Below are positions 1,288 to 53,048 of a DNA stretch of 64,000 bases, piece after piece. The stretch spans positions 30,396 through 94,395 of the forward strand of contig JAOZGP010000004.1 of the NCBI GenBank assembly GCA_027491735.1, in the 5' to 3' direction. Positions within the stretch are counted from its first letter, which is position 1. Every line of letters starts with the position of its first letter. The DNA is from Thermoproteota archaeon (GTDB lineage Archaea; Korarchaeota; Korarchaeia; Korarchaeales; Korarchaeaceae). The notes under the pieces were generated by a model, which did not search any database, was not told the origin of the DNA, and saw only the letters and a list, made by a program, of their open reading frames with translations. The translations under genes and the position numbers were made by a program.

Positions 1288-1333
1288 CAGAAGGATCAAG
1301 CTGGAAAAGATATTTCAAGGCCTGATATCCAAC

Positions 1334-1369: not shown

Positions 1370-1405
1370 TTATTTCTGACCCATCAGGGAAGAGAAGGTG
1401 ATTGT

Positions 1406-3381: not shown

Positions 3382-3628
3382 TCCTCTTCAGGGCCTCAAC
3401 TATATCCTCCAGACTCACTCCCACCAGGACACACCTCCTCAGCGAGCTCTTGACGATCTCCTCCACATCGGTCACCTTCTTCCCGATGAGCTCCCTCTCC
3501 AGCTTGTCTATAGATCCCTCAGGGAATGCAAAGAAGTCTCCAGAGATCTTAACTTTCTTTATCACTCCCCTCTCAGTCGAGCATGAGATAATGAGGGTCT
3601 TCTCCCTGCGGATGATGAGCTCCCTCAA
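3365..3628 (-). CDS. Lipoate-protein ligase C-terminal subunit (LplB-type)
   Basis: IKKVKISGDFFAFPE..IDKLERELIG motif; directly downstream of lplA N-terminal gene. Confidence 0.85.
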   Translation of the reverse strand: MRELIIRREKTLIISCSTERGVIKKVKISGDFFAFPEGSIDKLERELIGKKVTDVEEIVKSSLRRCVLVGVSLEDIVEALKRITQPL

Positions 3629-3636
3629 GGCCCCAT

Positions 3637-3676
3637 CTCACCTCACCTCATCTCACCTCACCTCATCTCATCTCAT
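3637..3676. repeat. Pentamer tandem repeat CTCA(C/T) x8
   Basis: ctcac ctcac ctcat ctcac ctcac ctcat ctcat ctcat; spans lplA stop and lplB SD. Confidence 0.85.
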
Positions 3677-4406: not shown

Positions 4407-4457
4407 CAGCGAGACCTCTCCTGAAACCGTTTAAAGTTGTTGGGACCTCTTTTGTCG

Positions 4458-8950: not shown

Positions 8951-8980
8951 GTGGAGAATGTCGATATCAAAAATAAAAAC

Positions 8981-10165: not shown

Positions 10166-10295
10166 CTTCCCTCGACTTCCCAGCTTTCTTAAAAAATTGA
10201 TGATCTTTCCCGCTCTCGAGAACCTGGACTCCGAATCGATGTTTCACTCATTCAGACGAAGGTTCTTATATCTATAAACCGATCTCGTCAGCGTC

Positions 10296-11468: not shown

Positions 11469-11469
11469 G

Positions 11470-11870
11470 ATCGTCTCGATATCTCCCTGGCCAGCTCAAG
11501 CACCCTTCTAGCCATCGACTTGTCGGCACCGATATAGCTCACTTGAACAGTACACACTACCAAACGAGCGAACGACCTCCGAATATTGCTCTCTGTGATT
11601 TTTCTCAGCTCGCCAGTTAGTTCGGTATCAGTTCTATGTACACCGTACTGCGATGATGCTCACCCTACACCTGAAATGTAGATCCCCTTCCCTCACCACA
11701 ACAGGCACAGGCTGAGCTCTTCTAGCTCATCGCCCAGTTCAAGCTTGATCTCTATGATACTTCGCCCATCCAAGGGCCTGGATCTCCCTTCACCACAATC
11801 AAGACGCTAGCTCCAAGTATAGGTACCTTCTAGAATGTCCAGAGCAGCCACATCCCTGATAGGAACTCCC
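11470..11870 (-). pseudogene. Possible decayed nucleotidyltransferase/HEPN-like remnant
   Basis: Broken frames give VLIVVKG, IIEIKLELGDELEEL and DKSMARRVLELAREIS; many stops. Confidence 0.25.
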
Positions 11871-11945
11871 CTCCAGTCCTTTCAATAAATTTGTCCACTA
11901 CTTTTTACTCTGGGTTTATGTTAAATGGATGTAAAACGCTGAAGA

Positions 11946-13067
11946 TCAGTCCCCAAACACCATCACGGGCTTCAACATCTCATCATCCAGTCTGAGGTTG
12001 CCCAGTCCGGGTCCTTCTGGAGGTCTCCTGCGTCCGTTCATGCAGGGAGATCCGCCCTCGACAACTACATCTCTCACAAGGGACAGATCGGAGTCCAAAT
12101 CAGTGGTCACTATGTTCTTCACACCCGCAGCCAGGTGGACAGCCGCTGCTATTGACACTCCTCCCTCCATCATACATCCCACCATGTTGGGAACTCCAGC
12201 GGCTTCGCAGATTGAGGCTATCTTCATGGCCTTTAGCAGGCCGCCTGACTTGACAAGTTTTATGTTTACGTAGTCAGCTGCCCTCATCTCCACGACCCTG
12301 AGGGCGTTCCTCGGCGAGCGGACGCTTTCATCAGCCATCACAGGTATCGGGGAGGCAGCTCTGACCTCGGCCAATCCCTCCAGATCGAACCACTTAACCG
12401 GCTGCTCCGCCAGTTCTACATCGTACCTGTACATCTCGTTGAGGCACCTCACGGCCTGCTTGACGGACCATCCCTGGTTGGCATCCACCCTTATCCTGAT
12501 GTCCGATCCCACAGCGTCCCTCACCGAGCTGACCCTCTCGATGTCCTCAACTGAATCGACTCCCACCTTGAGCTTCAGGATTTTAAAGCCGTTCTCCACA
12601 TACCTGACAGCATCCTTAGCAATTTCATCTGGCTTTTTTATTCCTATGGTTATGTCCGTCTCTACCTCATCCCTGTATCCTCCGAGCATCCTCCACAAAG
12701 GCAATCCACTTTTCCTGCACATCAGATCGAGAATCGCCATCTCCAGAGCAAGCTTCGCGCCTGAGTTGCCCAAGGTGATGCGATCCATCGTCTCCTCCAC
12801 GATCCCAATCCTCGAGACCTCAAGTCCTATGAGCGAAGGGGCCAGCTCTGCTACAGCAGCTTCCATAGTTTTGGTGCTTTCACCGACTATCCTCATCGCC
12901 GGAGAGGTCTCTCCCAGTCCAAAGTTTTCCTCCTCATCGAATACCTTAACGATCAAATCCGTGCTGGAAACAGATGTCCCAAGGGATATCGTGAATGGTT
13001 CCTTGTACTCCAGATATGCTTCATAGACCTCTATCCTCCTTACCACCATGAGGATCACAAGGAACAC
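11946..13067 (-). CDS. Dipeptide (L-Ala-D/L-Glu) epimerase, enolase superfamily
   Basis: KLKVG, RVDANQGW, EQP, ADES, NIKLVKSGG, MVGCMME, DLD. Confidence 0.9.
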   Translation of the reverse strand: MFLVILMVVRRIEVYEAYLEYKEPFTISLGTSVSSTDLIVKVFDEEENFGLGETSPAMRIVGESTKTMEAAVAELAPSLIGLEVSRIGIVEETMDRITLGNSGAKLALEMAILDLMCRKSGLPLWRMLGGYRDEVETDITIGIKKPDEIAKDAVRYVENGFKILKLKVGVDSVEDIERVSSVRDAVGSDIRIRVDANQGWSVKQAVRCLNEMYRYDVELAEQPVKWFDLEGLAEVRAASPIPVMADESVRSPRNALRVVEMRAADYVNIKLVKSGGLLKAMKIASICEAAGVPNMVGCMMEGGVSIAAAVHLAAGVKNIVTTDLDSDLSLVRDVVVEGGSPCMNGRRRPPEGPGLGNLRLDDEMLKPVMVFGD

Positions 13068-13184
13068 CCGTCGGGTTGCTTAGGAGCTTTTCTAATCCAT
13101 CTATACGCTATATGTATCTAGCTATATAGTTGGAAGGAGAAATCACTTTATATGAGGTTCTGGGAATAAATATCTGGGGATCAC

Positions 13185-14624
13185 ATGGACAACGATGGAA
13201 TTGAGGTCCCCAAGCTGATTTCATCTATAAGAAAAGTTGTAGGTAATGGTATCGTTAGGTCAACTATAAGAAAGCTTGGTCAGAAGAACCTTGAAAGGTT
13301 GCTGGGGATCTATGCTGGAGTTGATGAACCTGAGAGCATAAAGGAAAGAGTGCTCTCCTTTTTATTGTCTGAGGTTCTTCAGAAGGCAGCCTCCCGCTTC
13401 GGTGCTAGAGAGGAAGATCTCAAGCGCAGCCTTAAGGATCCCTACATGAGAAAGGGCATAGCCAACATACTTACGGGGATAGCTGAGTACGGGATAACAA
13501 GGCCTCAGAGGCTTCATGCTCCCTTCATGATAGTATGGGACTTCACCAAGCAATGCAATCTCAGGTGCAAGCACTGCTATGCCAACGCCACGAGATCGCC
13601 AGCTCCAGATGAACTCATCCTTGAAGAGAAATTCGAGGTCCTCAGGCAGCTTGATGAGGCTGGCGTTGCGGCTCTATCGTTCTCTGGAGGAGAACCACTC
13701 ATAAATAGGGATTTCTGGCCTGTAGCTAAGAAGGCAGCTGATCTCGGGATGTACGTCAGCATTGCCACCAATGGAACTCTGATAACTGAGGACGTCGCTA
13801 GGAGGCTCAGGGAGATAGGAGTCAGATATGTGGAGGTCAGCCTGGACTCTCCGATACCTGAAGAACACGACGAGTTCCGGGGGATAAGGGGGGCCTGGAA
13901 CATGGCTGTAAGGGGGATAAAGAACGCCAAGGCTGTTGGGCTGGAGGTCGGAATAGCTACCACAGTCACGAAGATGAACTACGACAGGATGCCGGAGATG
14001 GTATCTCTGGCCAGGAAACTTGGGGTTGACAGGTTCATAGCCTTCAATTTCATCCCGACCGGCAGAGGAAGGGAGATCATCGATCTGGATCTCTCGCCTA
14101 AGGAGAGGACAGAGCTTCTTGAGTATTTTTACCAAGAGCTAGTTAAGGGAGGTTTACAGGTTTTCTCCACCGCTCCGTTCTATGCAGTGGTCTCAATGAA
14201 GCACCTCGATGATGGAGGTAAGCTCGCTCCAACACACTTCGCCGAGCTTCAAGTCCCTGAGAAGTACATGTCTGCAGGCTTTGCTCTAGCTGAGTTTCTC
14301 GGAGGATGTGGTGCTGGGAGGATATACTGCTCGATAGAGCACAATGGAGACATACAGCCCTGCGTCTTCCTGCCGATAAAAGTGGGCAATGTTCTTGAAG
14401 ATGGATTCCTCAATGTATGGCAAAACAACGAGGTTCTCCTCAAGCTGAGGGATAGAGACAACTACGCCGGGAGCTTCTGCCCCTATCGATATATATGCGG
14501 CGGGTGTAGAGCCAGAGCATACGCATATTTTGGAGATATAACTGCTCTGGATCCGAGTTGTGAGTTCAACGAGGATTTGTGGGAGGAGATCATCCGAGAA
14601 GTCCAAAGAGTTGAGGCTCGATGA
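13185..14624 (+). CDS. Radical SAM/SPASM protein with N-terminal extension (candidate GMGT synthase, Gms-like)
   Basis: CNLRCKHCY, SGGEP, GCGAGR..C, PCVF, C..ICGGCRARAY; Gms assignment is inference from architecture and neighbour. Confidence 0.85.
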   Translation: MDNDGIEVPKLISSIRKVVGNGIVRSTIRKLGQKNLERLLGIYAGVDEPESIKERVLSFLLSEVLQKAASRFGAREEDLKRSLKDPYMRKGIANILTGIAEYGITRPQRLHAPFMIVWDFTKQCNLRCKHCYANATRSPAPDELILEEKFEVLRQLDEAGVAALSFSGGEPLINRDFWPVAKKAADLGMYVSIATNGTLITEDVARRLREIGVRYVEVSLDSPIPEEHDEFRGIRGAWNMAVRGIKNAKAVGLEVGIATTVTKMNYDRMPEMVSLARKLGVDRFIAFNFIPTGRGREIIDLDLSPKERTELLEYFYQELVKGGLQVFSTAPFYAVVSMKHLDDGGKLAPTHFAELQVPEKYMSAGFALAEFLGGCGAGRIYCSIEHNGDIQPCVFLPIKVGNVLEDGFLNVWQNNEVLLKLRDRDNYAGSFCPYRYICGGCRARAYAYFGDITALDPSCEFNEDLWEEIIREVQRVEAR

Positions 14625-28370: not shown

Positions 28371-28386
28371 AATATTCCGTAAAAAT

Positions 28387-29148
28387 TTAGAGAAGGTTTC
28401 TGGGTACTGGTGTGAAGTGCTCTTCGAGGCCGAGATCTTTAAATGGAGATCCCATGGCCCTAGCGATGAGTTGGGTGAAGTGGAGGATTGGAAGAGATCC
28501 TCCTCCATAGAAGTCGAGCATAAAGTGGCATAGATTACACATCGTGACGATGGCATCAGCTCCTGCCTCCTTAGCTGATTCCACCACGGATCTGGCCATC
28601 TCAACAGCAACATTGGGTTTCCTGAGGGTTAGAGGTCCCCCGCAGCACTTGAGCCTCATAGAAAAATCTACAGGTTTGGCTCCTATAGCTTCCATCAGAT
28701 CCTCAAGCATGTGCGGATCTTCTGGATCATCTATGGCGAGATCTCTCGGCCTGAGGGCTTGACATCCGTAATAGGTGGCTACCTTCAAGTCAAGGCTCCT
28801 CACTACCCTCTTCCTCAGCTCCTCAACGCCCACTTCATCGTGCAGGAACTTGACGAGGTGATCTATTGAGCCCCCTCCTCTGTTTATGTTGCTGTAACAT
28901 CCACTACACCCAGTTATCAGTCTCTTCTGACCGGCTTCCCTCATTATTATGTCCGTGAGTCCTCTCACTATGTTCACATCTACGAGTTCGGCTTCAAGGG
29001 TGCCGCAGCAGGGGGCCCTGTCCAGGATCACAGGTTCAAAACCCAGCTTCCTAAGGACAGAGATCGCCGTCCTGAGGTAAGCCTTCTCGGTTGTCTTAGC
29101 GGAGCAGCCAGGATAATAGGCCACAACCCCAGTGGTCTCATCTGACAA
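28387..29148 (-). CDS. hdrB: Heterodisulfide reductase subunit B-like
   Basis: Two CCG domains: YYPGC..CCG..CSGC and YYGC..CCGG..CNLC. Confidence 0.88.
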   Translation of the reverse strand: MSDETTGVVAYYPGCSAKTTEKAYLRTAISVLRKLGFEPVILDRAPCCGTLEAELVDVNIVRGLTDIIMREAGQKRLITGCSGCYSNINRGGGSIDHLVKFLHDEVGVEELRKRVVRSLDLKVATYYGCQALRPRDLAIDDPEDPHMLEDLMEAIGAKPVDFSMRLKCCGGPLTLRKPNVAVEMARSVVESAKEAGADAIVTMCNLCHFMLDFYGGGSLPILHFTQLIARAMGSPFKDLGLEEHFTPVPRNLL

Positions 29149-29620
29149 TCCTCCTCACCTCCCTCCTGATCTCTTCGGGAACTCCTCCTCCCTCCTTCAG
29201 TATCCCGGCCAACTTTACTCCCTTGAACCCAGCCATCTTAAGCGATCCGAGAACCCCGATCGAAGAGATTGCGACCTTAGCTGGGTTTATGAACGCTCTC
29301 CTTCTAAGCTCGTCCATGAAGGCCTTCTCGATTCTCCCAACCCCATACTTCCTGACTCTCATGTTCGACAGGGCCGTAGCTATGTCCGGGAAGCTGAGGC
29401 CCTGAGGACACCTCACCGTACAGAGGTAGCAGTGGAGGCAGGGCTCGTAAAGCCTCTTGTCCACCACCTCGTCCATTCCCATCTGTACCATGTGCACCAG
29501 CTTGTTTGGCCTGAAATCGTCTACTCCGACGACTTGGCATGATGAAGCGCACTCGCCGCACTGGAAACACTTGTAGACATCCTGGCCGGATATCTTGAGA
29601 ACTTCATTGGCAAGGATCAT
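29138..29620 (-). CDS. hdrC: Heterodisulfide reductase subunit C-like
   Basis: CFQCGECASSC and CLHCYLCTVRCP. Confidence 0.88.
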   Translation of the reverse strand: MILANEVLKISGQDVYKCFQCGECASSCQVVGVDDFRPNKLVHMVQMGMDEVVDKRLYEPCLHCYLCTVRCPQGLSFPDIATALSNMRVRKYGVGRIEKAFMDELRRRAFINPAKVAISSIGVLGSLKMAGFKGVKLAGILKEGGGVPEEIRREVRRIVR

Positions 29621-30501
29621 CCTCTCACCCTGCCCATTGAGATCGCCCTAGCGGATAGCTTCTCCTTGCAATCTGGGCATATTTTCTGGGAGTTTGCTCT
29701 TTCTATTTCCTTTGATGTGGCAAAAGGTCTGCCGCAAAGTTCGCATCTGACCAGCTTCATCTCAGGACCCTTCGACCACTCTTCCAAGAGCTGCTTGACC
29801 GTCATTCCTCCCAGCTTCAGGGCCTCAACCTTGTTCTCCTTGCAGACATCGACACACTTCCCACAACCAACACATTTCGAGGCGCTCAGATAGATAATTC
29901 GGAGGTCCTTCGAGTCCTCGAACCTAAGAGCCCCTTCAGGACATGCCTCGGCACATGCACCACACCCAATGCACTCCTCCGAGAAGAGCGGTATCTCGAA
30001 CCCGGGCACAGGCACTAGCCTGACTTCCTTCACCATCTTAGCTATGGACCTAAGGGATTCCGCGAAGTTCTCCTTCTTCTTCGGCACCCTCAGTACAGGT
30101 TTTCTGTCAAGCGGAGGAAGCCTGTTCAACCTGGAGGACATCTCTTCTGCTGCAGCAACAAACTTATGCGGTTCGGAAGCTGCCATGAAGAACATCTCGA
30201 CCCTGTCCGGCTCGACCCCAATCGCGTCCAGAAGCTGCTTGAGGAACTCAACCCTCTCCTCTGCTTTGAGGTTTCCGTCCACATAATGACATTCTCCCTT
30301 TCTGCAACCAGCTACAAAGACAGCATCAGCTCCTTTGGCCAGCGCATAGAGGATCCACGCCGGATCAACGGTCCCCGAACAGGGAATCCTTACTATCAGG
30401 ACGTTAGCTGGATGCTTCCTATGAGTGCTGCCGGCCAGGTCGGCGGCAGCATAGGCGCACTCATTACAGCAGAAACCAACCACAAGCCTCTCATCAGCCA
30501 C
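29617..30501 (-). CDS. mvhD: MvhD/FlpD [2Fe-2S] subunit fused to 2x[4Fe-4S] ferredoxin and CxxC..CxxC domain
   Basis: FCCNECAYAAAD, RIPCSG, GCRKGECHY; CIGCGACAEAC, CVGCGKCVDVC; CELC..CPDC. Confidence 0.88.
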   Translation of the reverse strand: MADERLVVGFCCNECAYAAADLAGSTHRKHPANVLIVRIPCSGTVDPAWILYALAKGADAVFVAGCRKGECHYVDGNLKAEERVEFLKQLLDAIGVEPDRVEMFFMAASEPHKFVAAAEEMSSRLNRLPPLDRKPVLRVPKKKENFAESLRSIAKMVKEVRLVPVPGFEIPLFSEECIGCGACAEACPEGALRFEDSKDLRIIYLSASKCVGCGKCVDVCKENKVEALKLGGMTVKQLLEEWSKGPEMKLVRCELCGRPFATSKEIERANSQKICPDCKEKLSARAISMGRVRG

Positions 30502-32464
30502 TCAACACACCCCCTAGCAGACCCTCTATCTGATTGAATATCTGATCCTCCGTGTACACCTTCCTGCTTATGGCCCCAACTGGACAGACTGCCTGGCATA
30601 TACCACACCCCGCACAGGCAGCTGGCAATATCTTGGCCTTTCCGTTCTCCTCAACTATAGCATTGAAGGGACACTGATCCTTGCAGGCCATGCATCCAAT
30701 GCAGAGTTCCTCATCCACGAAGGCTTTTTCACCACTGATCTTGATCTTCCCCTTCATCAGGATTGTGGCCGCCTCGCTTGCAGCAGCCTTGGCCTGTGCA
30801 ACGGAGTCGGGTATGTCCTTAGGTCCTTGAGCAGCTCCACATATGAAGATCCCGGGGACTGACGTCTGGACTGGTTTGAGCTTCGCATGGAGCTCCTGGA
30901 GGAAGCCATAGGGGTCCTTTGGTATGTTGAACACCTCCCTTATGGTCTTAGTCCCTTCAGAGGGGGACACACCAGCAGCTAGGACCACTAGATCGGCCTT
31001 TATCTCCAGCTTCCTGCTAAGAGTCTGATCGAACACTTCGACCGCCAGGTGATCTCCCTCCCTTCTCACCTCTCCAGGCTTTCCTCTGATGAACATCACT
31101 CCCTCCTCCCTCACTCTGGAGTATAGCTCCTCAAACCCCTTCTTTGGGGTTCTCATATCTATGTAACATATGTACACCTTGGTATCGGGGTACTCGGATC
31201 TTATTATCTCCGCATGTTTTAATGATATCATGCAGCAGACATTCGAGCAGTAGGGGTTGTTGTTCACATCCCTGCTCCCTGCACACTGTATGAAAACGAC
31301 GCTTCTTGGAATTTTTCCATCGGAGGGCCTCTTTAGGTGTCCTGAAGTCGGTCCGTTGACGTTTATCAGAGATTCTAGCTGAAGCTGTGTTATAACATCA
31401 GCGTACTTCCCATATCCATAGTTCTTTAAATTTGATGCATTGTACTCGTCAATCCCCGTGGCTATCACGACCGCACCCACCCTGAGCTCAAACTCCTCCG
31501 GATTCTCGTTCAGGTTTATCGCCTCGACGGGGCATCTCCTGGCACATTCGCCACACTTCCCACTTTTTATGTATAGGCAGGATTCCGGATCTATCACATA
31601 GGCCCTCGGAGCCGCCTGAGGAAAGGGTATATAGGCAGCCTTCCTCCTACCCAATCCCATCTGCCACTCGTTGATAGTTTCCACCGGACACACCCTCTCG
31701 CAGGTGGCGCAGGATATGCACTTCTCCGGATCCACATATCTCGGTTTCTTCCTGACTTTCAATGTGAAGTTTCCTATGGACCCTGACGCCTCAACAACCT
31801 CGCTCATCGTGTGGACCTCTATCAACGGATGGTCCAGAACCTCAGCCATCAGAGGAGTTAGTATGCAGAGGGAGCAGTCCCCTGTTGGGAAGACCCTATC
31901 AAAGAGAGCCATCTTTCCCCCGAGGGTTGGGTTTTTCTCTAGAAGATGGACCTTTATCCCCTTGTTGGCCAGATCCAGGGCAGCTGTTATCCCAGCTATA
32001 CCCCCTCCGATGACCGCAGCCTCGTTCACCACTTCGGCCTCGCTCTCATATATGGGTTCGGCAGCGGCAACCTTATGAACTCCCGCTAGCACGTACCTTA
32101 TCGCCTTGTTCGTCGCCTCCTCCGGATTCTCAGTTGACCAGGAGACCTGTTCCCTCAGGTTTACCTGCTCCATATATCCCGGATTGAGCCCTGCCTCAGC
32201 TACAACCCTCCTAAAGAGGCCTTCATGGAGCTTGGGGCTACATGCAGCCACAACAACTCTGTTTATCTTTCCACTCTTTATGTCCTTCCTTATGAGCTCC
32301 TGTCCCATCTTGCTACACATGAAAAAGTAATCCCTGGATATCGCCACTAAGGGATTCTTCGCCACCTCCTTGGCGACCTTCTTGACGTCAACCTTCCCAG
32401 CTATGTTCTTGCCACAGTGGCAGACGTATACACCAACCCTTATATCATCCGACGTATAGATCAC
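30494..32464 (-). CDS. hdrA: Heterodisulfide reductase subunit A
   Basis: VYVCHCGKNI, AACSP, GGGIAG, DCSLCIL, QCAGSRD..YCSNVCC, GPKDIP, C-terminal ferredoxin. Confidence 0.96.
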   Translation of the reverse strand: MIYTSDDIRVGVYVCHCGKNIAGKVDVKKVAKEVAKNPLVAISRDYFFMCSKMGQELIRKDIKSGKINRVVVAACSPKLHEGLFRRVVAEAGLNPGYMEQVNLREQVSWSTENPEEATNKAIRYVLAGVHKVAAAEPIYESEAEVVNEAAVIGGGIAGITAALDLANKGIKVHLLEKNPTLGGKMALFDRVFPTGDCSLCILTPLMAEVLDHPLIEVHTMSEVVEASGSIGNFTLKVRKKPRYVDPEKCISCATCERVCPVETINEWQMGLGRRKAAYIPFPQAAPRAYVIDPESCLYIKSGKCGECARRCPVEAINLNENPEEFELRVGAVVIATGIDEYNASNLKNYGYGKYADVITQLQLESLINVNGPTSGHLKRPSDGKIPRSVVFIQCAGSRDVNNNPYCSNVCCMISLKHAEIIRSEYPDTKVYICYIDMRTPKKGFEELYSRVREEGVMFIRGKPGEVRREGDHLAVEVFDQTLSRKLEIKADLVVLAAGVSPSEGTKTIREVFNIPKDPYGFLQELHAKLKPVQTSVPGIFICGAAQGPKDIPDSVAQAKAAASEAATILMKGKIKISGEKAFVDEELCIGCMACKDQCPFNAIVEENGKAKILPAACAGCGICQAVCPVGAISRKVYTEDQIFNQIEGLLGGVLSG

Positions 32465-33273
32465 CTCCTCAGAAAATAGCTAAAAATCTCAGAAAAAGCT
32501 TCGTTCATGGCGATAACACCAGGGGAGTTTTCGGGGTATATATCGACTCCTCTCCCCTCCATCTCGCTCAAGAAGAAGCTATCGTCGTAGGGGATGAAGA
32601 ACGCCCCAACATCCCTCTTGCCGCACTCATCGAGCACCTTCCTTCTGATCATCCCAAGCTTATCGGGAGGAACCTTGTTCACAAGAAGATCTATCCTCTC
32701 TATGCCCAGGTTTTTCCCCATCTCTATCAGCCTAAACGAGATGTCGAGGGACTTCACTGTTGGTTCCGAGACACAGATCATGTGATCGAAGTTCTCAGCT
32801 AGACCCCTTCCAAAGACCTCTGCTCCGGCCTCCGAGTCCACCACAACGGCTTCCCTCTCATCCATCATGACGTGTTTGAGGAAGGCTCTCGCCAAAGCTA
32901 TTGCTGGACAGAGACATCCCTCTTTAGCCGCGTCTATGCTGCCAACAACGACCAGTCTTAGGTTGTCCCTCACCCTAAGGCCGAACTTCTCTATTATGTC
33001 ATCCACCTGAGGATTGAGTCTGAAGAAGATTCCCCACGCCTCTCCAGGCTTTGCTCCAGTTCGTTTAGCGATGAACTCATTGTTCTTGGTAAGAGGAATT
33101 ATCTTGAGGGCTTTATCTCTCGGCACACCAAGGGCTTGGGCCAGATTAGGGACTGAATCTGTGTCAAGAGCTAAAACCTTGAGACCTCTTAAGCTCAAGA
33201 AAAAAGAGAGGAGAGCAGATGTGGTAGTCTTCCCTGTCCCTCCCTTTCCAGCCACGAGCACCTTTAACGGCAC
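32461..33273 (-). CDS. cooC: CODH nickel-insertion ATPase
   Basis: GKGGTGKT, GCLCP, DSEAGAE. Confidence 0.92.
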   Translation of the reverse strand: MPLKVLVAGKGGTGKTTTSALLSFFLSLRGLKVLALDTDSVPNLAQALGVPRDKALKIIPLTKNNEFIAKRTGAKPGEAWGIFFRLNPQVDDIIEKFGLRVRDNLRLVVVGSIDAAKEGCLCPAIALARAFLKHVMMDEREAVVVDSEAGAEVFGRGLAENFDHMICVSEPTVKSLDISFRLIEMGKNLGIERIDLLVNKVPPDKLGMIRRKVLDECGKRDVGAFFIPYDDSFFLSEMEGRGVDIYPENSPGVIAMNEAFSEIFSYFLRR

Positions 33274-33279
33274 CTATAC

Positions 33280-35208
33280 TCACTCCGGCCATCCGAGCTT
33301 CTTCCTCTTCTCCTTTATCACTTGGATCATCGTCTGAGCCGCCTTTATCGGATCGGGTTCGACGTAGAACTTTCCTCCTACCAGGTCCTCAGCCTTATCG
33401 GTCAGGATCTCGACTACCCCCTTGCTGCCCAAGACAGGAGGCACCGTTCCTAGGTGTGTAAACACGCCAGAGGAGACGAAGTAGGTTCCTATGGAGACAG
33501 CCTTCTCGCTCATCCACTCCGGAGCAGAGCCCACAGCAGGAAGGTCTGATATATCCACGCCCAGGTGGTCCGCCAGTGCCGCCAGAGCTATCAACATTCT
33601 GGAGCAGTCAACGCAGCTTCCCATATGAAGGGCAGGCGGTATTCCCAGGGATTTACATATCTCCTTCAGTCCGGGACCCGCTAGTTCAGCTGCCTCTGGT
33701 TTGAAGAGCCCGTGCTTCGACATGGCGATGGCCCAGCATCCGGTTCCGACGACTAAGATGTCGTTCTTTATCAGCTCCTTCGTCAGGGTCACATGGCTGT
33801 AATCGTGCCTGACTTTGGGGTTCACGCAGCCCACTATCCCAGCCACTCCCTTTATCTTTCCTGACTTGAGAGCCTCAGCCAATGGATCCAAGGTTCCTCC
33901 AAGGGCCTCCAATATCGCCTCCACGCTGAAACCAGCGACAAGCTCCATTTTCTCCTTGGGTATGAAAACCCTCTCCTTGACCCTGTTGGGGAAGTTCTCC
34001 ACAGCAACCCTAACTATCTTCTTAGCTGTCTCCAACGCGTTCTCTTTGTCGAACTCTATGTGTATAGCTCCTGGCATGTGAGCCTTCGGCTCAGTGGTTA
34101 TCACCTTGGTGTGGTAGCAGGACGCCACGTTAGCTATCGCTGGCATTATGCACTGGTAGTCCACTATGACCGCCTCCACAGCACCTGTTATTATGGCGAG
34201 CTCCTGCTGTAACATGTTCCCGGCTATAGGTATTCCATACCTCATCAGGACCTCGTTGCCGGTACAGCACATCCCAACAACGTTTATCCCTCCAGAAGCT
34301 CCGGCCTTCTTCGCCAGCTCGAGAAGTTCCGGATCCCTTGCAGCTTCGACCACCTTGGAGGAGAGTATGGGGTTGTGGCCGTGGACAACTATGTTTACAG
34401 CATCCTCTCTGAGAACTCCCAGGTTCGCAATGCTCTTGACGGGTTTTGGTGTGCCGAGAAGTATATCGCTCAGCAGGGTGGCCATGAGAGATCCTCCCCA
34501 CCCATCTCCTAGGGAGGCCCTTATTCCCTGAGCTATCAGGCTCAACGGATCCGCGTCGACACCCATATGAGTTCTGTGCATTATCTCGACAACCTCCCTG
34601 TCTATAGCTCTGGGCATGACTCCTACCTTCTCCCAGATCTTTCTTCTCTTCTCCGGAGCGTACCCCTCAACCAGTTTGAGGGGTTCCTCGCCGGGCTTCC
34701 CGAACTCCATCAGAAGGACCTCAGCAACCTCCTTAGCTACATCGTTCAGCTCTTTTCCTTCAACGTCAACGCCCAGCCTCTTGGCTAGATCCATCAACTT
34801 GGCCTCATCGGTTATCTTGTAATCCTTAGCCCTTCCCTCAGGTATTGCCGCCAGAACTTCAGCTATATCCCTTGCATGATCGCTGTGAGCCGCAGCTCCA
34901 GCAGCTATCATCCTGATAAGGTTCCTGGCAACTATAGTGTCAGCGGTAGCTCCACAGACGCCCTTTTGCGGACCATATCCGAAGGGATCTATCCTGCATG
35001 GACCCATGTTGCAGTTCCTGCAGCACACCCCTAGCTGGCCGAAACCGCATTGAGGTTGTTGCGCTAAGAACCTATGCCATGCGGTCTCCACTCCGTCCTT
35101 CTCTGCCTTCTCGAGAAGCTGCTCAACTGTTGAATCCATGGACACGCTCCTATAGAACTCCTTCCGGGAGGCTTTCATAAGCCTCTCATAAATTCTCTCC
35201 TCAGGCAT
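33280..35208 (-). CDS. cooS: Anaerobic Ni,Fe carbon monoxide dehydrogenase catalytic subunit
   Basis: QPQCGFG..GVCCRNCNMGPC..GVCG; AAHSDH; HGHNP, CCTGNE, DYQC, GCVN, GCW, GSCVDC; EKA. Confidence 0.97.
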   Translation of the reverse strand: MPEERIYERLMKASRKEFYRSVSMDSTVEQLLEKAEKDGVETAWHRFLAQQPQCGFGQLGVCCRNCNMGPCRIDPFGYGPQKGVCGATADTIVARNLIRMIAAGAAAHSDHARDIAEVLAAIPEGRAKDYKITDEAKLMDLAKRLGVDVEGKELNDVAKEVAEVLLMEFGKPGEEPLKLVEGYAPEKRRKIWEKVGVMPRAIDREVVEIMHRTHMGVDADPLSLIAQGIRASLGDGWGGSLMATLLSDILLGTPKPVKSIANLGVLREDAVNIVVHGHNPILSSKVVEAARDPELLELAKKAGASGGINVVGMCCTGNEVLMRYGIPIAGNMLQQELAIITGAVEAVIVDYQCIMPAIANVASCYHTKVITTEPKAHMPGAIHIEFDKENALETAKKIVRVAVENFPNRVKERVFIPKEKMELVAGFSVEAILEALGGTLDPLAEALKSGKIKGVAGIVGCVNPKVRHDYSHVTLTKELIKNDILVVGTGCWAIAMSKHGLFKPEAAELAGPGLKEICKSLGIPPALHMGSCVDCSRMLIALAALADHLGVDISDLPAVGSAPEWMSEKAVSIGTYFVSSGVFTHLGTVPPVLGSKGVVEILTDKAEDLVGGKFYVEPDPIKAAQTMIQVIKEKRKKLGWPE

Positions 35209-35823
35209 CTACACCCACCACCCCACAGGTTTGTACATCTCCTTAACTTTAGAAATCGGGGATTCTGGAGCCTCCTTTTCAATCCTCGCATAGACCACTC
35301 CAGCCTCCTGTACTCCCAGTATCATCTCCAAGGCTTTCTTTCTCTTCTCTTCATAGAGAAGGTCCTCCGCTCTACCAAACCTAAGGGCGCCCGTTGGACA
35401 TGCCTCCACGCATGCCGGAGGAAGCCCCCTTCTCATCCTCTCAATGCAGTGATCGCACTTGATTACTTTAAGCGTGGAGTCATAGGAGGGATGGCCGAAG
35501 GGACACGCCAGGAGACATGTCCTGCATCCTATGCACTTCTCCCTGTCTGCGACAACGAAGCCTTCCTCGGTCCTATGCATGGCTCCTGTAGGACAAGCCT
35601 GCTCACATGGAGCGGGATCGCAATGCATGCACCTCATGGGAACGAGGAGTCTGTCAGCCACAACAACTCTGGTTCTTGGGCGAGGAAGAGGTTCTTCAAA
35701 GATTGCTCCAAACAGGTCACGGGAGTCGGAGTGTTCAACAGCGCAGGCTATTTCACAGCTTCTACATCCGACGCATTTAGAGGGGTCCACGTATATCAGG
35801 TACTCGGGCTGAGTTAAAGTCAC
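35209..35823 (-). CDS. cooF: CooF-type 4x[4Fe-4S] electron transfer protein
   Basis: CVGCRSCEIAC, CMHC..PCEQACP, CIGCRTCLLACP, KCDHC..PACVEACP. Confidence 0.92.
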   Translation of the reverse strand: MTLTQPEYLIYVDPSKCVGCRSCEIACAVEHSDSRDLFGAIFEEPLPRPRTRVVVADRLLVPMRCMHCDPAPCEQACPTGAMHRTEEGFVVADREKCIGCRTCLLACPFGHPSYDSTLKVIKCDHCIERMRRGLPPACVEACPTGALRFGRAEDLLYEEKRKKALEMILGVQEAGVVYARIEKEAPESPISKVKEMYKPVGWWV

Positions 35824-35861: not shown

Positions 35862-37040
35862 TTACGTATAATTATTTCGTTTTTCAACGAAAGAAGGAAT
35901 TGAAGTCCCGTTTTTCTTCTGGGAAATTTTTAAATTTTTACTTAAAATCGATGATTTAGCAATTTTATATCTCTTTATAAGCTCCAAACACTCAGGAGTT
36001 GGGGTGCATCCTCCCCTGTCTGAACCACCTTTCCTGGACATGAATAGGTTAATCCCCAAAATCTTTTCAATAGATCTTACTCTCTTGTATATCGAGGCTG
36101 GTGATGTGTTAAGAGCTCTAGCAAGTCTGCTAAAGCTTCCTAGATCAGCTAATGCCGATAAAATTTCCAGATCATCCTCGTATATGCGTCTGCCGTCCTT
36201 GGTCACGAGGACCAAGGAGGCTGAGAAGGAGTACTTCGTTGATCGACTTATCTTGCTGCAGTTCAGCCGCACGATGCCTGCTATCTCGAGGGGTGAGTAG
36301 AGCATGTTGAGGGTTCCCTCCACAGGGCATTTCCCTACATATCCCGCCGAGTCCAGGAACACCATGCCGCAGTTCAACTTACAGTAGGGGCCGTCCAGGA
36401 CATATATTGGAAAATCTCTTCTGAAAGTGACCCGAACCATGTAGACGTCCATGAACTTTCTGAATGGCTCAGAGACCTCAAACCCCTGTCTCTCCATGAT
36501 GGCCACAGCGCTAGTGGAGCAGACCGTTGGAGGACAGAATATGGGCGGGGAGATCCACATCTGAACCCCCTTCTCCCTGATTAGATCTATACAGGTGAGA
36601 AGTTCCCTCTCATTTGTGTTTTGAGTGATAAACAGGGCTACTTTTACGTTTGCTCCTCTGGAGAGAAGGTATCTCATCATCTTCCTTGCCCCGGAGATGT
36701 CCGAGTGTGTGTAAGAAAAGAGAAAAATCTCATCCGGTATGAGCAGGCTTCTCCATCCTTCCTCCTCGGAGCCGGTTGAGGATGGAGTGAATACCCTGAG
36801 AGGGAGTCTTCTCTCCTTAACAGACATCATAAGATCCGTAACACCTGGATGGAGGAGCGGGTCCGGACATATGAAGCAAACCTCCGGTCTGTACCCGGAG
36901 CCTATCATGGCGTCCAACACGAGCTCGAGCTTATCTTTCTTGAGGTATGTGCGCTCTCCAGACTTGGTTTCTCTCCACGGGCACTGGGAGCAGGACGCAT
37001 CGCACCCCCTCACAGGTCGAACTATGAGTACGGGCTTCAT
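35862..37040 (-). CDS. Degenerate radical SAM-like Fe-S domain fused to C-terminal LysR/ModE-type HTH (CorR-like regulator)
   Basis: CDASCSQC; ICPDPLLHP; C..NC...D..G.V.KCP; GSFSRLARALNTSPASIYKRVRSIEKILGINLF..RKGG..RGG. Confidence 0.8.
   Translation of the reverse strand: MKPVLIVRPVRGCDASCSQCPWRETKSGERTYLKKDKLELVLDAMIGSGYRPEVCFICPDPLLHPGVTDLMMSVKERRLPLRVFTPSSTGSEEEGWRSLLIPDEIFLFSYTHSDISGARKMMRYLLSRGANVKVALFITQNTNERELLTCIDLIREKGVQMWISPPIFCPPTVCSTSAVAIMERQGFEVSEPFRKFMDVYMVRVTFRRDFPIYVLDGPYCKLNCGMVFLDSAGYVGKCPVEGTLNMLYSPLEIAGIVRLNCSKISRSTKYSFSASLVLVTKDGRRIYEDDLEILSALADLGSFSRLARALNTSPASIYKRVRSIEKILGINLFMSRKGGSDRGGCTPTPECLELIKRYKIAKSSILSKNLKISQKKNGTSIPSFVEKRNNYT
35867..35924 (-). promoter_or_regulatory. 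Candidate cooF promoter/operator inside 3' end of upstream regulator ORF
   Basis: TATA-like TAATTATA; TTTCGTT-N4-AACGAAA at 35875-35892; CGTTTTTC at 35878 and 35909. Confidence 0.45.
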
Positions 37041-37591
37041 GGAATCGCCTCCATCACCTCGGCCCTGAACTCACATAGGCCATCGCCAGCTGCCTGACAG
37101 CTCACCTCCTCCATGGGTCCTATTCTCACCCTGAGTATATCCTCGACCAGTGCTGCCAAGATGCCGGCCACGAACCTGCAGACCGGCTCCTTGGACTTCC
37201 TTCTCCTGGCCTCAAAGGAGTTGGAGACGGAGATCCTAACGAAGTTGTCCTCAATTTCTATCTTCTCTATCCTGCCGAACCCCAAGGTCTCAAATATGGA
37301 TGCAGCTATCCCGAAGAGCTCGTCCTTCTCGAATCTCTCTCTCATGGGAACTATTCCCTTCTCGTTGTGGGCCTTCATGAGCCTGTAGGCTGAGTAGTAT
37401 AGGACAGGGCCTATGGCCTTACTGCCAGCCACAACCGAGATTCCAGCCATGAAGTCGGCCCACCACTTGGTGGACATGATGAACACGTCCGGCAGAATTG
37501 CCCTGCCGAAAAGGGGTATATCAACCTCGACCCTTATACTTCCCTGATCGTTCTGGATCTTCCTGATGTTCTTCATCATCGGTAAAATCAA
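37037..37591 (-). CDS. V4R domain protein (CorQ-like)
   Basis: GFGR, NSFEA..PVCRFVAGIL, EVSCQAAGDGLCEF. Confidence 0.85.
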   Translation of the reverse strand: MILPMMKNIRKIQNDQGSIRVEVDIPLFGRAILPDVFIMSTKWWADFMAGISVVAGSKAIGPVLYYSAYRLMKAHNEKGIVPMRERFEKDELFGIAASIFETLGFGRIEKIEIEDNFVRISVSNSFEARRRKSKEPVCRFVAGILAALVEDILRVRIGPMEEVSCQAAGDGLCEFRAEVMEAIP

Positions 37592-49235: not shown

Positions 49236-52200
49236 CTATGCCGACACCACTTGCTCTTTTCCTTCCTTCTTGAGAGACTTCCACATCATTTCGACCTCTT
49301 CAATCCGCTCTTTCCAGTGATCATCATCTTCGGATGTGTAGATCTCTATCATTCCTCCTTGGACGTCTCCTTGACCGAGTTCTTCCTCTAAGATGCCCTC
49401 CAACTCAGAGTACATCTCCCTCAACTTTTCTATGAGTTCATCGCTCGTCTTCCACAGGCCGCGCTCATAGGCCTCTATCAGCCTCCTCACAATCTCCTCC
49501 AAGGCGTAGGGATTATGCTTCTCGAACCATCTCCTCATCTCATCATTAAGTGCGTACTTCTCGGCTATCTCATCGAACACCCAGTCCTCGACAAGTTTTG
49601 TCGTTGCCTCCCACCCATAGAGGTGGAGGATTTTCTTCGAGAACTCGCTGGCCCCTCTGTAGCCATGCTTTCTCATCTCATCTATCCATCTGTCGTTAAG
49701 GAGCTTCGTCCTGACAACCCTTTCTATCTCGTCTCTCACATTCACCACCTTGGTGTCCGTTACGTCCCTAGTGTCCACCTGAACTATGTCGACGCTCTTT
49801 CCGGTAAGCGCGTCCACGGCCGCCTTGAATCCACCGTGATATGCGAAGTAACAACAACAGTTCGTTAAGTCGTGCTCATCGCTCATGTGATTCCTGTTTA
49901 TCACGTCCACCTCCCTGAGACCTAGAGTTAGAGAGTCGTGTGCCTTCACCCCGAAAGCCTCCCTGCTGTAGGCATAACCACTCCAGTGAACCCAGACCTT
50001 TCCGAGATCATCGCCGCCCCTCCATCCGGAGGACTCCACAGCTAGATTGACCCCAGAACCATAGGAACCCGGAGGAGAGCTGAAAACTCTGAATCTAGCA
50101 AACTTTCTCGCCTCATCTAAGCTTCTTCCAAGCTCAACAAGTTCTCTTATGTGTTCTATGTAGTGCTTCCTGATGTAGTTCATCTCAGGAGGCTCATCTC
50201 TTGTAACGACCTTCTCAACGGCTTCATCTATCAGATAGATGTAGTTGGGAAGGGTGTCCCTAACTATCCCACTCATCCTCACCAGAACGTCTATTCTTGG
50301 CCTTTTAAGCTCCTCGATTGGTATGATCTCCACCCCAACCACGAAATCGTCTTTCCAGACGGGCCTAACACCCAAAAGGTATAGTATCTGAGCCACCTGC
50401 TCGCCATCGGCTTTGTAGCCATCTATGCTCCAGAGAACCTGACCTACGCTCTCAGGATACTTTCCGTGCTTCTTCACATAATTCTCTAGGAGCTTCTCCG
50501 CCGTCTCAACTCCCACCTGCCAGGCTGCCTGAGTTGGTATAGTTCTGGGATCGACTGCGTAGAAGTTCCTGCCGGTCGGGAGGATGTCGAACTTGCCTCT
50601 AGTTATGGCTCCCGACTGACCGGGCTCCACGTAAGTTCCTGAGATGCCTGATAACATACCTGATGTCTCTTTTTTGCACTCCGTTATCTTTTTAGCAACT
50701 TCAGCAGCCTTATTAAGGATCTTTATGATCTTTTCCAGGTCTTTAAGCTTAGTTCCAAGCCTGTCTTCCACCCTCTCGAGAGCATCCTGGGACACGACAA
50801 AGCCCCTGCTGATGACCTCCTCTAAAGCCATGACTGCCGCCTCGTGAGCTGCACGAAGCATCTCTCTGTTCGACACATCCCCGATCATCCCCGTTGGATT
50901 CCTCCTAAGCTCATTGTAGTCCAAACCAACGGCCTCCAAGATGGCCCTCCTGATTGATGGAGATGAGTAGGAGTCGTACTCCATGACTGTGGCCACGTAC
51001 TCAGCAAGCTTGTGGGGATCCTCGGGTGGATGACCGAGGACATGGAGGCCCATGTTTATCTGGGACCCCCTTATAAGGTCCGTGAATCTGTGGATCTCCT
51101 CTACCGTCCTCTCCTCGTTCTTGGGATCTGTGATCCTGATCCTGTTCCTCTCAGCACACTTCAAGATCTGCTTGTATATCTTCCTCCTCCTAATTTCATC
51201 TCCCAGGCTCTTTGCCTTGAAGTACTGATTTAGAAGGGAATTTACGTCATCGAGCACATTGGCCATGGCCATTGGTGGATATATGTGATCTATGAGGGCC
51301 GCATACCCTCTCCTCTTGGCTATCACCCCCTCCATGGGGTTCGACACGATGTAGACGTATAGATGGGGAACATCGTCTATTGAGGCCTGAGGCACACATG
51401 AGGGAGAGAGCCCAACCCCCTTGCCGGGTCTGAACTCCAGATAACCATGAGTGCCGAAGTGGATTACCACATCGGCCTTGAACTTCCTCGTGATCCACCT
51501 GTAAACGGCCCACCACTGATGTGGAGGGACTATTGTGGGATCGTGAAGAATCCTACACACCTTTCCATCACACCTAGCCCCAGCACAACCGAACTTGGGC
51601 TGTGGTGTTATGAGCACGTTCCCGAATATCACTCCAGGCACCACGAACCTTCCGTTGTGAACCATCCCCGCCAGAACCTTGTCCACCCTTCCGGTCAACA
51701 CCTCCTCCGGACTCCCCCAGCCCTCAACAATCTTCCTCCTCAGGTCCGGTGGAAGCTCTTGGAACCAACTCATGTATTCTTCAAAACCGACGAAGTCGAC
51801 TGCACCTCCCCTGCTCACTATATCCTCGACGCTAGTCCATCTGAACTCGCTCAGTGCCTTTCTCTCTAAGATCAGCTTCACCAATTCCTCCCCAGTCTCT
51901 GGGAGATCATCCCCAAGGAAGTAGCCCTCATCTCTCAACCTATGAAGCAACCTTACGACACTTTCAGGAACGTCAAGGCCCATCCCAACAGCTACGTTGG
52001 CCTCAAGACCCTTACATGGTGGATTTATCAGTACCACCGCTATCTTGACCTCTCCCCTCGGCTTTTTCCTCAGCTCAACCCATCTCCTTATCCTTCCAGC
52101 TATGTATCTCGCCTGTCCCTCGTGGATTTGGGATGTCTGATAGCCATCCTCGTTCCTCGTCCCTGAGAAGAAAATCGGCTCCACGGCCCCGATTATCTCA

Positions 52201-53048
52201 GGGATTATGACTCCGTAGACCTGAGTCATGTAGTCGACTCCCTGCTCGCTCCTCTCCCAGTTCTCCAAGGACTGATAATAGGATCTCACTGGAGAGAAAA
52301 CAGGGACTTTTAACTCTGAAAGCCTCTTCAGATCCGCTGTCCCAAAGGAGATCAGAGAGACCAGAGCTTCTATGGTTGGTACACCGTCCTTAAGGAAGAA
52401 CTCAAGCGCTTCGTCCTTTTCCACTCCTAGACCAGTAGTGGGGTCCTTCCTGTAAGTGAAAACTGGAACTACTCCAAGTCCCTCGTCCTCCAAGGCCTTT
52501 ATGAGCCTGTTTATATGGCCGAAGTCCTTGTACAACCAAAAGCTTCTCCAGAAAAGCAACCCCACAAGTGGTTTTCTAGTGTAGACCTTGAGGTAATCAT
52601 CCAAGCTCTCGAAGAGGCCGAACTCCGGGTGGTATATCCCCTGCATTGGAAGCTCCTCCGGCTCCTCGTAGCTGACGTTCTTCCCCGCTAGATTGGCGAG
52701 ATATCTTACCAAGTTTCTAAGATTTTTTTCCCCTCCAAGGATGTAATAAGACTTGGCTTTGGTTAGGACTTCCAGAGAAACGTTGTTAAGCTCCTCCAAC
52801 CCTCCCGAGGCTACAACCTGGGACCCGCTCGATGACCTGAGCAGATCTGAAACAGCTGCCGGTATCTCGTGTGCATATAAAAAGATCACCTTAGCCCTCC
52901 CCACAGATTCCAATTCTCTTTCACAACTCTGATCCGTGAGAACAACTCCTTCTATCTCTTCCTCGCTTAAGATCTTGTCAAGGAGAGGTTTTGCCTTGGC
53001 TCCATAGCCCAAGATGAGGCATACGCCTTCCTTTTTTGATACCTCCAT
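49236..53048 (-). CDS. cobN: CobN-family chelatase large subunit
   Basis: HFGTHG.LEF.PGK, EGVIAKRR, LPTGRNFY, RPRIDV..MSG..RD, YGSGV. Confidence 0.95.
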   Translation of the reverse strand: MEVSKKEGVCLILGYGAKAKPLLDKILSEEEIEGVVLTDQSCERELESVGRAKVIFLYAHEIPAAVSDLLRSSSGSQVVASGGLEELNNVSLEVLTKAKSYYILGGEKNLRNLVRYLANLAGKNVSYEEPEELPMQGIYHPEFGLFESLDDYLKVYTRKPLVGLLFWRSFWLYKDFGHINRLIKALEDEGLGVVPVFTYRKDPTTGLGVEKDEALEFFLKDGVPTIEALVSLISFGTADLKRLSELKVPVFSPVRSYYQSLENWERSEQGVDYMTQVYGVIIPEIIGAVEPIFFSGTRNEDGYQTSQIHEGQARYIAGRIRRWVELRKKPRGEVKIAVVLINPPCKGLEANVAVGMGLDVPESVVRLLHRLRDEGYFLGDDLPETGEELVKLILERKALSEFRWTSVEDIVSRGGAVDFVGFEEYMSWFQELPPDLRRKIVEGWGSPEEVLTGRVDKVLAGMVHNGRFVVPGVIFGNVLITPQPKFGCAGARCDGKVCRILHDPTIVPPHQWWAVYRWITRKFKADVVIHFGTHGYLEFRPGKGVGLSPSCVPQASIDDVPHLYVYIVSNPMEGVIAKRRGYAALIDHIYPPMAMANVLDDVNSLLNQYFKAKSLGDEIRRRKIYKQILKCAERNRIRITDPKNEERTVEEIHRFTDLIRGSQINMGLHVLGHPPEDPHKLAEYVATVMEYDSYSSPSIRRAILEAVGLDYNELRRNPTGMIGDVSNREMLRAAHEAAVMALEEVISRGFVVSQDALERVEDRLGTKLKDLEKIIKILNKAAEVAKKITECKKETSGMLSGISGTYVEPGQSGAITRGKFDILPTGRNFYAVDPRTIPTQAAWQVGVETAEKLLENYVKKHGKYPESVGQVLWSIDGYKADGEQVAQILYLLGVRPVWKDDFVVGVEIIPIEELKRPRIDVLVRMSGIVRDTLPNYIYLIDEAVEKVVTRDEPPEMNYIRKHYIEHIRELVELGRSLDEARKFARFRVFSSPPGSYGSGVNLAVESSGWRGGDDLGKVWVHWSGYAYSREAFGVKAHDSLTLGLREVDVINRNHMSDEHDLTNCCCYFAYHGGFKAAVDALTGKSVDIVQVDTRDVTDTKVVNVRDEIERVVRTKLLNDRWIDEMRKHGYRGASEFSKKILHLYGWEATTKLVEDWVFDEIAEKYALNDEMRRWFEKHNPYALEEIVRRLIEAYERGLWKTSDELIEKLREMYSELEGILEEELGQGDVQGGMIEIYTSEDDDHWKERIEEVEMMWKSLKKEGKEQVVSA

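Follow-up and report, generated by a model that had tools for sequence, protein, structure and literature searches.

The heterodisulfide reductase complex HdrABC-MvhD is the textbook example of an enzyme with flavin-based bifurcation. The inputs known for it are hydrogenase, formate dehydrogenase and F420H2, and in methanogens MvhAG and FdhAB feed their electrons in at MvhD. Here we describe a korarchaeal locus in which the genes of such a complex directly follow those of a nickel-dependent carbon monoxide dehydrogenase (Ni-CODH). The locus lies in a stretch of 64,000 nucleotides that was analysed as a whole (the window, G000:C36:30396-94395), and coordinates given below are window positions unless another locus is named. 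Seven minus-strand genes, cooF, cooS, cooC, hdrA, mvhD, hdrC and hdrB, are arranged head to tail at 28387-35823; this order on a single strand had been proposed in a first-pass annotation of the DNA, and the positions of the open reading frames (ORFs) agree on it with the Pfam and NCBIfam matches. That annotation had also taken CODH to be the input module of this Hdr, which we find to be the best-supported reading because the cluster is conserved, no other known input module was found in the metagenome-assembled genome (MAG) of the host, the MvhD protein carries an adaptor domain homologous to a subunit of energy-converting hydrogenase (ECH), and binding of CooF to it is predicted. The full proposal, that a soluble Ni-CODH is hard-wired into HdrABC-MvhD and that electrons from CO pass through CooF and an MvhD fusion to the flavin of HdrA, where they are bifurcated, has in our judgement an even chance of being right.

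Comparison with the described systems shows which parts of the locus are familiar. With MvhAGD-HdrABC of hydrogenotrophic methanogens (5odc, 8rvu) it shares an HdrA matching end to end at 643-648 bits, MvhD (114-116 bits), HdrC and the two CCG motifs of HdrB, however, no MvhA or MvhG was found here, MvhD has an extra HycF-like domain, HdrB is shorter by about 40-50 residues and the host has no McrA or ComA match. The FdhAB-MvhD-HdrABC(-Fmd) supercomplex (7bkb; related 9sfi), whose chains are matched at 89-549 bits, is similar in that a non-hydrogenase donor leads into MvhD and polyferredoxins extend the wire, whereas the donor here would be Ni-CODH acting through CooF, and no Fdh or FrhB/FdhB match was obtained in the host. 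HdrA2B2C2 of Methanosarcina acetivorans (PMC5296606) gives the top NCBIfam model both for the HdrA (819.7 bits) and for the MvhD part (166.3 bits) of the locus. In M. acetivorans, HdrA and MvhD are fused, CODH/acetyl-CoA synthase (ACS) works by way of free ferredoxin and bifurcation starts from F420H2; here, in contrast, HdrA and MvhD are separate, MvhD is instead fused to the HycF-like domain, and cooFSC belongs to the same operon. Lastly, the CODH-ECH clusters of Thermococcus, Rhodospirillum and a congener of the host (G003) resemble the locus in cooF-cooS-cooC, in a pair of V4R and LysR-HTH genes, in an Fe-S element of HycF/CooX type and in CooS itself, which is closest to the solved enzyme 6t7j (1036 bits). 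Unlike in those clusters, no group-4 [NiFe] hydrogenase or antiporter-like subunits are found around the genes studied here; only the CooF-facing Fe-S subunit remains, fused to MvhD and followed by HdrABC.

The cofactor motifs are intact in CooS, CooF, HdrA, MvhD, HdrC and HdrB. CooS, the Ni,Fe-CO dehydrogenase catalytic subunit (642 aa, 33280..35208), passes the equivalog cut-off of TIGR01702 with 786.6 against 478 bits, and its residues 21-641 align with few gaps to 6t7j, which we take to be a Thermococcus enzyme. An alignment of 11 sequences has invariant columns at C54, C62, C63, C66, C71, C85, H278, C314/C315, C353, C461, C491 and C532, and H108 and K569 are likewise invariant; going by Carboxydothermus CODH-II numbering, these residues presumably coordinate the D-, B- and C-clusters or, in the case of a His and a Lys, take part in catalysis. 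With this mapping from column to cluster, the invariance of the expected Cys and His columns bears out the earlier statement that CooS has all C-cluster ligands. The electron-transfer subunit CooF (204 aa, 35209..35823; PF13247 Fer4_11, 81.8 bits) has 16 conserved Cys, sufficient for four [4Fe-4S] clusters. CooC (270 aa, 32461..33273), the Ni-insertion ATPase with a P-loop of CbiA/ParA type (PF01656 CbiA, 56.5 bits), has a CXC motif at residues 120-122, and the position of its gene is kept in all eight of the Hdr-linked relatives.

In the other half of the cluster, the flavoprotein HdrA (656 aa, 30494..32464; NF040770 HdrA2, 819.7 bits) is full-length, with its N-terminal cluster, its FAD domain and both ferredoxin domains, one inserted and one C-terminal, all present (Cys motifs at residues 249-259, 296-311, 588-598 and 617-627). 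It aligns from end to end with the solved chains 8rvu_a (648 bits, residues 4-651 against 8-654) and 5odc_A, at 643-648 bits. HdrC (160 aa, 29138..29620; PF13534/PF13183, TIGR03290 at 48.6 bits), a subunit with two [4Fe-4S] clusters, has its two CX2CX2CX3C motifs at residues 18-28 and 61-71. The catalytic subunit HdrB is short (253 aa, 28387..29148) and is matched by PF02754 in two stretches (91 bits) and by TIGR03288 (132.2 bits). It retains two complete CCG motifs comprising 10 Cys (15/47/48/81/84 and 129/168/169/204/207) in the pattern CX31-38CCX32-35CXXC, and its alignment to solved HdrB chains covers mainly residues 90-246.

It is the mvhD product (294 aa, 29617..30501) that links the two halves, as the proposed adaptor between CooF and HdrA. 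The first-pass annotation had called it MvhD, which holds for the N-terminal domain (residues 4-131; PF02662 on residues 7-128, 158.6 bits), where Cys 12, 15, 41, 66 and 71 are invariant in 29 sequences. It is not a stand-alone MvhD, however, since a ferredoxin domain that had been overlooked is fused to it: a 2x[4Fe-4S] domain of HycF/CooX type with a C-terminal CxxC...CxxC tail occupies residues ~170-291, with Fer4 at 174-223. Residues 173-269 are matched by NF006076, 'hydrogenase 4 subunit H', a model of the formate-hydrogenlyase Fe-S subunit matches too, and a structure match of the fused domain is HycF 7z0s_F (E 3.8e-10). On comparison with the 165-aa ECH Fe-S subunit of the congener G003, residues 177-291 show 35% identity (E 2e-22), tail included. 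The tail lies 3' of the two [4Fe-4S] motifs (29617-29860, residues ~213-294) and is zinc-ribbon-like, with conserved Cys 253, 256, 275 and 278; it is common to the fusion and the ECH subunit of G003 and makes up much of the predicted CooF interface. HycF, we believe, abuts a CooF-like subunit in the solved formate hydrogenlyase.

CooF (35-row alignment) was modelled against the MvhD fusion (29 rows). The median ipSAE was 0.75, while the best of three controls reached 0.00; this mark is attained by 58 of 80 solved complexes and by 2 of 110 mismatched pairs, counts that are only a rough guide here as the alignments were our own. The runs agreed on at least 66% of contacts, with a partner pLDDT of at least 72. 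On the side of the fusion the predicted interface comprises residues 180-186, 219-224 and 261-288, that is, the ferredoxin domain and tail, not the MvhD domain, and on the side of CooF it comprises residues 98-113 and others close by, in the region of the third cluster motif. Binding of CooF by the fused ferredoxin domain is thus predicted.

These results bear on a second reading, in which the two halves are co-regulated but separate, CooS and CooF reducing free ferredoxin while HdrABC-MvhD/Fd draws through its fused domain on ferredoxin or another soluble donor. It is in keeping with general knowledge that CooF-type CODHs commonly use soluble ferredoxin. Free ferredoxin also sufficed in the M. 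acetivorans reconstitution (PMC5296606, accessible part), and the 3' end of cooC has T5 runs by which the halves could be uncoupled. However, what has been added to MvhD is specifically the ECH-type subunit that accompanies cooFSC in the congener, the contact with CooF is predicted with controls at 0.00, and in all eight relatives the coo and hdr halves are joined with overlapping stop and start codons, so that we consider separate operation quite improbable.

If CODH is indeed the input module, CO would be oxidised at CooS and electrons would run from CooS through the four CooF clusters to the two clusters of the HycF/CooX-like domain on MvhD. The fused domain would here act as an adaptor; it belongs to the type of subunit facing CooF in CODH-ECH. 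From it electrons would pass to the [2Fe-2S] cluster of MvhD and on to the flavin of HdrA, where the path would divide. One branch would lead through HdrC and the two non-cubane clusters of HdrB to a disulfide, and the other, by way of the ferredoxin domain inserted in HdrA, to ferredoxin, which, once reduced, could be re-oxidised by membrane complexes encoded elsewhere. The direction of flow, the bifurcation, the CO induction and the nature of the substrate are what we infer for this complex.

The cluster is compact. With longest-ORF starts, its junctions from cooF to hdrB measure 0, +6, -4, -8, -4 and -11 bp in order; gaps do stay within 6 bp as had been claimed, however, overlaps do not, reaching 11 bp. 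Family searches of the window proteins around the locus found no mvhA/G, fdh, Ech/Mrp or ACS genes in or adjoining the cluster, confirming the earlier claim. On its 5' side lie genes for a LysR-HTH protein, a V4R protein, an ORF without family and CstA, and the 3' neighbour of hdrB is a convergent radical-SAM gene. An A/T-rich, TATA-like stretch at 35867..35878 (minus strand), ~45-55 nt 5' of the cooF start, may be the operon promoter, and a T5 run at 28381..28385 (minus strand), which begins 2 nt past the hdrB stop in the scan of the sense strand, may be an archaeal terminator.

The two genes directly 5' of cooF were overlooked in the first-pass annotation. They lie on the same strand, overlap by 4 bp, and encode a V4R-domain protein (184 aa, 37037..37591; PF02830, 48.1 bits) and a LysR-HTH protein (392 aa, 35862..37040; PF00126 HTH_1 at residues 289-350). 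The same pair of domains constitutes the CO regulator CorQR beside the CODH-ECH cluster of Thermococcus onnurineus (PMC6557876, accessible part), and, by analogy of domains and position, the genes described here putatively encode the sensor and DNA-binding halves of a CorQR-like, CO-responsive regulator. The pair is present 5' of cooF in 7 of the 8 Hdr-linked relatives, the contig of the eighth (L019) being cut, and homologues of the LysR-HTH protein are also encoded at one locus each of Asgard (L028) and Desulfurococcales (L029). From gene order and spacing, the seven genes may form one CO-inducible operon, as the full proposal has it; for that proposal as a whole the balance of belief and doubt is equal. 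Elsewhere on the same contig, the longest ORF of the window (1270 aa) lies at 49236-53048 on the minus strand, and 5' of the window two CCG domains (61.3 and 51.6 bits) were detected at G000:C36:15195-15824 in a 666-aa ORF, possibly of HdrD/GlcD type.

CooS was found in 18 of the 41 genomes searched, the host included, and in 11 of 24 relatives of the same family. A survey of synteny, which the first-pass annotation had suggested, showed the linkage to be conserved in three genera: amongst 15 CooS loci of relatives that were compared, eight (L013-L020; genera g1, g2 and g4) share the gene order cooS-cooC-hdrA-mvhD/Fd-hdrC-hdrB, with proteins that are 49-95% identical. Seven of these also keep V4R-HTH-cooF, and the contig of L019 starts inside cooS. 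The other seven loci are without hdr genes, one of them (G028) being uninformative on a contig of merely 3.6 kb; cooS fragments at contig edges in G011 and G017 stand outside the 15. In nine genomes (G000, G001, G004, G008, G010, G013, G014, G016 and G019, hereafter the block-bearing genomes), CooS shares its contig and strand with a match to the MvhD fusion over its full length, ~2.7-2.8 kb separating the two matches. The genes flanking the block are common only to the same-genus genome G001, so that the nine genes act as a single, separate block. As the order recurs across three genera with unrelated flanks, the adjacency is beyond chance. A metagenome scan keyed on MvhD motifs returned 80 loci, mostly ordinary mvhD loci, of which three have the whole block and are the only ones with cooS; a fourth begins inside the block.

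A comparison is offered by G003, of the same genus and the sole family member with McrA. In the classic hydrogenogenic manner, its cooF-cooS-cooC is directly followed by a complete ECH/Mrp-type module (L021:6692-18980, G003:C70) of three antiporter-like subunits, NuoH- and NuoK-like subunits, a NuoCD-type [NiFe] large subunit, the 165-aa Fe-S subunit and a NuoB-like subunit. In gene order, the Hdr module occupies the place of the congener's ECH module, and, judging by homology, the Fe-S subunit lying between CooF and the hydrogenase in the ECH version appears to recur as a domain on MvhD. A CODH-ECH cluster is listed for a Washburn korarchaeote (PMC6687684), in keeping with G003.

For phylogeny, 32 rows were chosen, namely the window, the 15 relatives, 14 of 80 loci from other taxa and 2 metagenome loci, the other 66 loci being left out of the tree. 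All Hdr-linked CooS fall in one clade (100/100), which also contains the class-level relatives G027 and G028 of different context, and the ECH-linked CooS of G003 is the sister branch (83/72). In G027 (L022:3161-7615, G027:C4), genes for a 277-aa two-CCG protein and a 278-aa CooF-like Fer4_11 protein are divergent from cooF-cooS, and this pair may be a minimal link from CO to a CCG reductase. The other-taxa set comprises 80 CooS loci at 54-71% identity, many with flanks ended by contig ends. At L071 (Bipolaricaulota), hdrCBA lies ~5.6 kb downstream of cooS. At L096 (Bathyarchaeia, 529-14619), cooS stands between genes for a 260-aa MvhD protein and a 337-aa ferredoxin-MvhD fusion, along with at least five full-length or short genes of the hdrA family; neither cooF nor hdrBC is present in the stretch seen. 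This association is an independent one, because the CooS of L096 falls in a distant clade. Additionally, at least 14 MvhD-ferredoxin fusions of a second tier (P0018-P0031) were collected at 35-45% identity.

The distribution of the block is also what a reading of neutral adjacency has to explain, by which the two halves are juxtaposed without function and were so inherited in one lineage. The single clade of Hdr-linked CooS means that the linkage may have arisen once, and related genomes are not independent observations. However, the block has stayed intact across three genera, at 62-95% protein identity, while its flanks changed, the MvhD fusion is specific to this context, and an unrelated CooS, that of Bathyarchaeia, is also found among mvhD and hdrA genes. 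Neutral adjacency is accordingly very hard to credit.

Other modules that might feed this Hdr were sought in the host MAG (1.357 Mb, 41 contigs, 87.85% complete, with an archaeal 16S gene), in which absences are those of an incomplete genome. Family searches of the whole MAG gave no match for McrA, CdhC/ACS or ComA, for molybdopterin oxidoreductase/Fdh (PF00384) or for FrhB/FdhB (PF04432). Nor was a group-3 [NiFe] hydrogenase or MvhAG found, the sole PF00374 match being a membrane enzyme of group-1 type, with small and large subunits and HybA- and NrfD-like partners at L004:14202-19065 (G000:C3); contig C22 encodes one large subunit of group-4/Nuo type. A look for mcr, CoM synthesis, mvhAG and dsr genes had been proposed at first pass, and so far as McrA, ComA and group-3 hydrogenase represent the first three, none was found. 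DsrAB and DsrC, which had been overlooked, are present: DsrA scores 546.9 and DsrB 493.9 bits (L006:5348-7677, C23), and DsrC lies at G000:C23:19077-19382. According to the accessible part of PMC10667645, Dsr among Korarchaeia is confined to Ca. Methanodesulfokores. Contig C3 of this DsrAB-bearing archaeon additionally encodes an MvhD-Qmo-type module (L004:3891-8871), in which the gene for a second, short MvhD (120-154 aa) comes before those for three proteins: a QmoA-like HdrA that is short (444 aa), an HdrA/QmoB-like one of full length (649 aa) and a membrane protein resembling QmoC (348 aa; NF038018, 201.6 bits, under the cut-off of 300).

The same searches argue against reversal of the wiring, whereby CooF would sit on the low-potential branch and bifurcation by Hdr would drive the reduction of CO2 to CO, as in the Fdh-Hdr-Fmd supercomplex. 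Channelling by polyferredoxin from HdrA to a CO2-reducing enzyme is a mechanism that we recall as known, and complexes of the 7bkb type are among the structure matches. However, no ACS that would consume the CO was found, as the MAG gave no CdhC match and cooS is the only Prismane-family gene (PF03063) found in it; a donor module for the MvhD side was not found in the MAG; and the predicted CooF contact falls on the domain fused to MvhD, CooF having been modelled with the fusion only. Reversed flow is therefore highly improbable.

Several points weigh against CODH as the bifurcating input of this Hdr. The Hdr subunits all score under the NCBIfam equivalog cut-offs (HdrA2 819.7/1100; HdrA 684.2/1400; HdrB 132.2/345.15; HdrC 48.6/160). 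Outside the lineage, hdrA is found in the flanks of only 2 of the 80 CooS loci, many of the flanks being short, and the second-tier fusions at L126, L165 and L170 have no cooS nearby, partly on short contigs. The predicted interface, being a model, may reflect likeness to the solved formate hydrogenlyase (HycF 7z0s_F) and not binding here. Two T5 runs (32497-32493 and 32486-32482) fall within the last 40 nt of cooC, just 5' of hdrA, and further ones were seen within cooC, hdrA and hdrB on scanning the sense strand; such runs could, in archaea, stop or dampen transcription where the coo half meets the hdr half. In addition, amongst the nine block-bearing genomes McrA is present in none, DsrA above the cut-off in two (G000, G001) and ComA in two (G004, G008).

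The main weakness, however, is an energetic one. With CO/CO2 at -558 mV and ferredoxin at -520 mV (PMC5296606, accessible part), the donor is as low as ferredoxin, so that bifurcation is not thermodynamically needed and a linear CO:disulfide reductase is feasible on potentials. The same complex would in that case be a plain CO:disulfide oxidoreductase, in which electrons run from CooF through the fusion and HdrA, or partly bypass HdrA, to HdrBC, and ferredoxin would not be reduced. Such wiring needs no uphill step, and it has a precedent in vitro, in that CO with CODH/ACS, ferredoxin and HdrA2B2C2 reduces CoM-S-S-CoB, CO, H2O and CoMS-SCoB yielding thiols and CO2 without bifurcation (PMC5296606, accessible part); HdrA2 is, moreover, the top NCBIfam model for the HdrA studied here. 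However, the inserted ferredoxin domain, the low-potential exit in solved Hdr complexes, is complete in this HdrA and has all of its eight Cys, and a linear path would dissipate ~400 mV. The MvhD entry, as is well established, leads to the flavin in known structures. Linear wiring is hence to be regarded as unlikely, even if it deserves to be taken seriously, and CODH as the input of a bifurcating Hdr is the reading that we retain.

As for the disulfide, the presence of the block does not go with that of Mcr, Dsr or ComA, and therefore neither CoM-S-S-CoB nor DsrC is a common substrate. CoM-S-S-CoB is ruled out as a general substrate of HdrB by the occurrence of McrA in 0/9 and ComA in 2/9 block-bearing genomes, and the DsrC trisulfide by 7/9 of these genomes being without DsrA above the cut-off. 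In this particular host the situation is somewhat different. DsrC is a candidate substrate, given that DsrAB and DsrC are present, while CoM-S-S-CoB is unlikely because there is no McrA or ComA match; the search for CoM and CoB in the MAG was for McrA and ComA, with ComA-independent CoM routes and CoB synthesis outside it.

A 'partial HdrABC/MvhD', described as "puzzling", is reported to be conserved in all Korarchaeia genera, mostly without hydrogenase and without MCR (accessible part of PMC10667645), and these are probably the same genes as the Hdr described here. CooS is absent from the main text of that paper, and no donor is proposed there for the HdrABC/MvhD. The literature searched, in the portions accessible, contains no link of CooS to korarchaeal Hdr as its donor, and earlier korarchaeal genome papers or supplements could mention the context. 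More specifically, in Techtmann 2012 the terms Korarchae, Hdr and heterodisulfide do not appear; in the accessible part of Inoue 2019 the only CODH contexts listed with Hdr-like COGs are those of the Wood-Ljungdahl/ACS group; and a CooS-Hdr link was not found in the available parts of Carr 2019, the Geobacter CO paper, the 2024 Cell hydrogenase paper and the Buckel-Thauer review. The novelty therefore likely lies in the interpretation and the adaptor and not in the sequence, because block-bearing genomes are already in public collections.

In terms of biology, we tentatively propose, with slightly more doubt than conviction, that CO is a third natural donor of HdrABC-MvhD after H2 and formate/F420H2, admitted through the graft of an ECH subunit, and that its electrons are bifurcated to ferredoxin and to a thiol/disulfide couple shared by the non-methanogenic Korarchaeia. 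Should the linear or the uncoupled reading be right, the finding would reduce to an unusual operon arrangement. The locus offers a compact, soluble CO-oxidising assembly suited to expression and assay, and it points to a disulfide electron sink in these organisms. If true, input from CODH would add a new class of donor to HdrABC-MvhD and would show redox modules being rewired by fusion of a docking subunit. It would also give a concrete function to an Hdr complex that is conserved in archaea without methanogenesis, accounting for the 'puzzling' orphan Hdr, and would amount to CO-driven disulfide respiration outside the methanogens.

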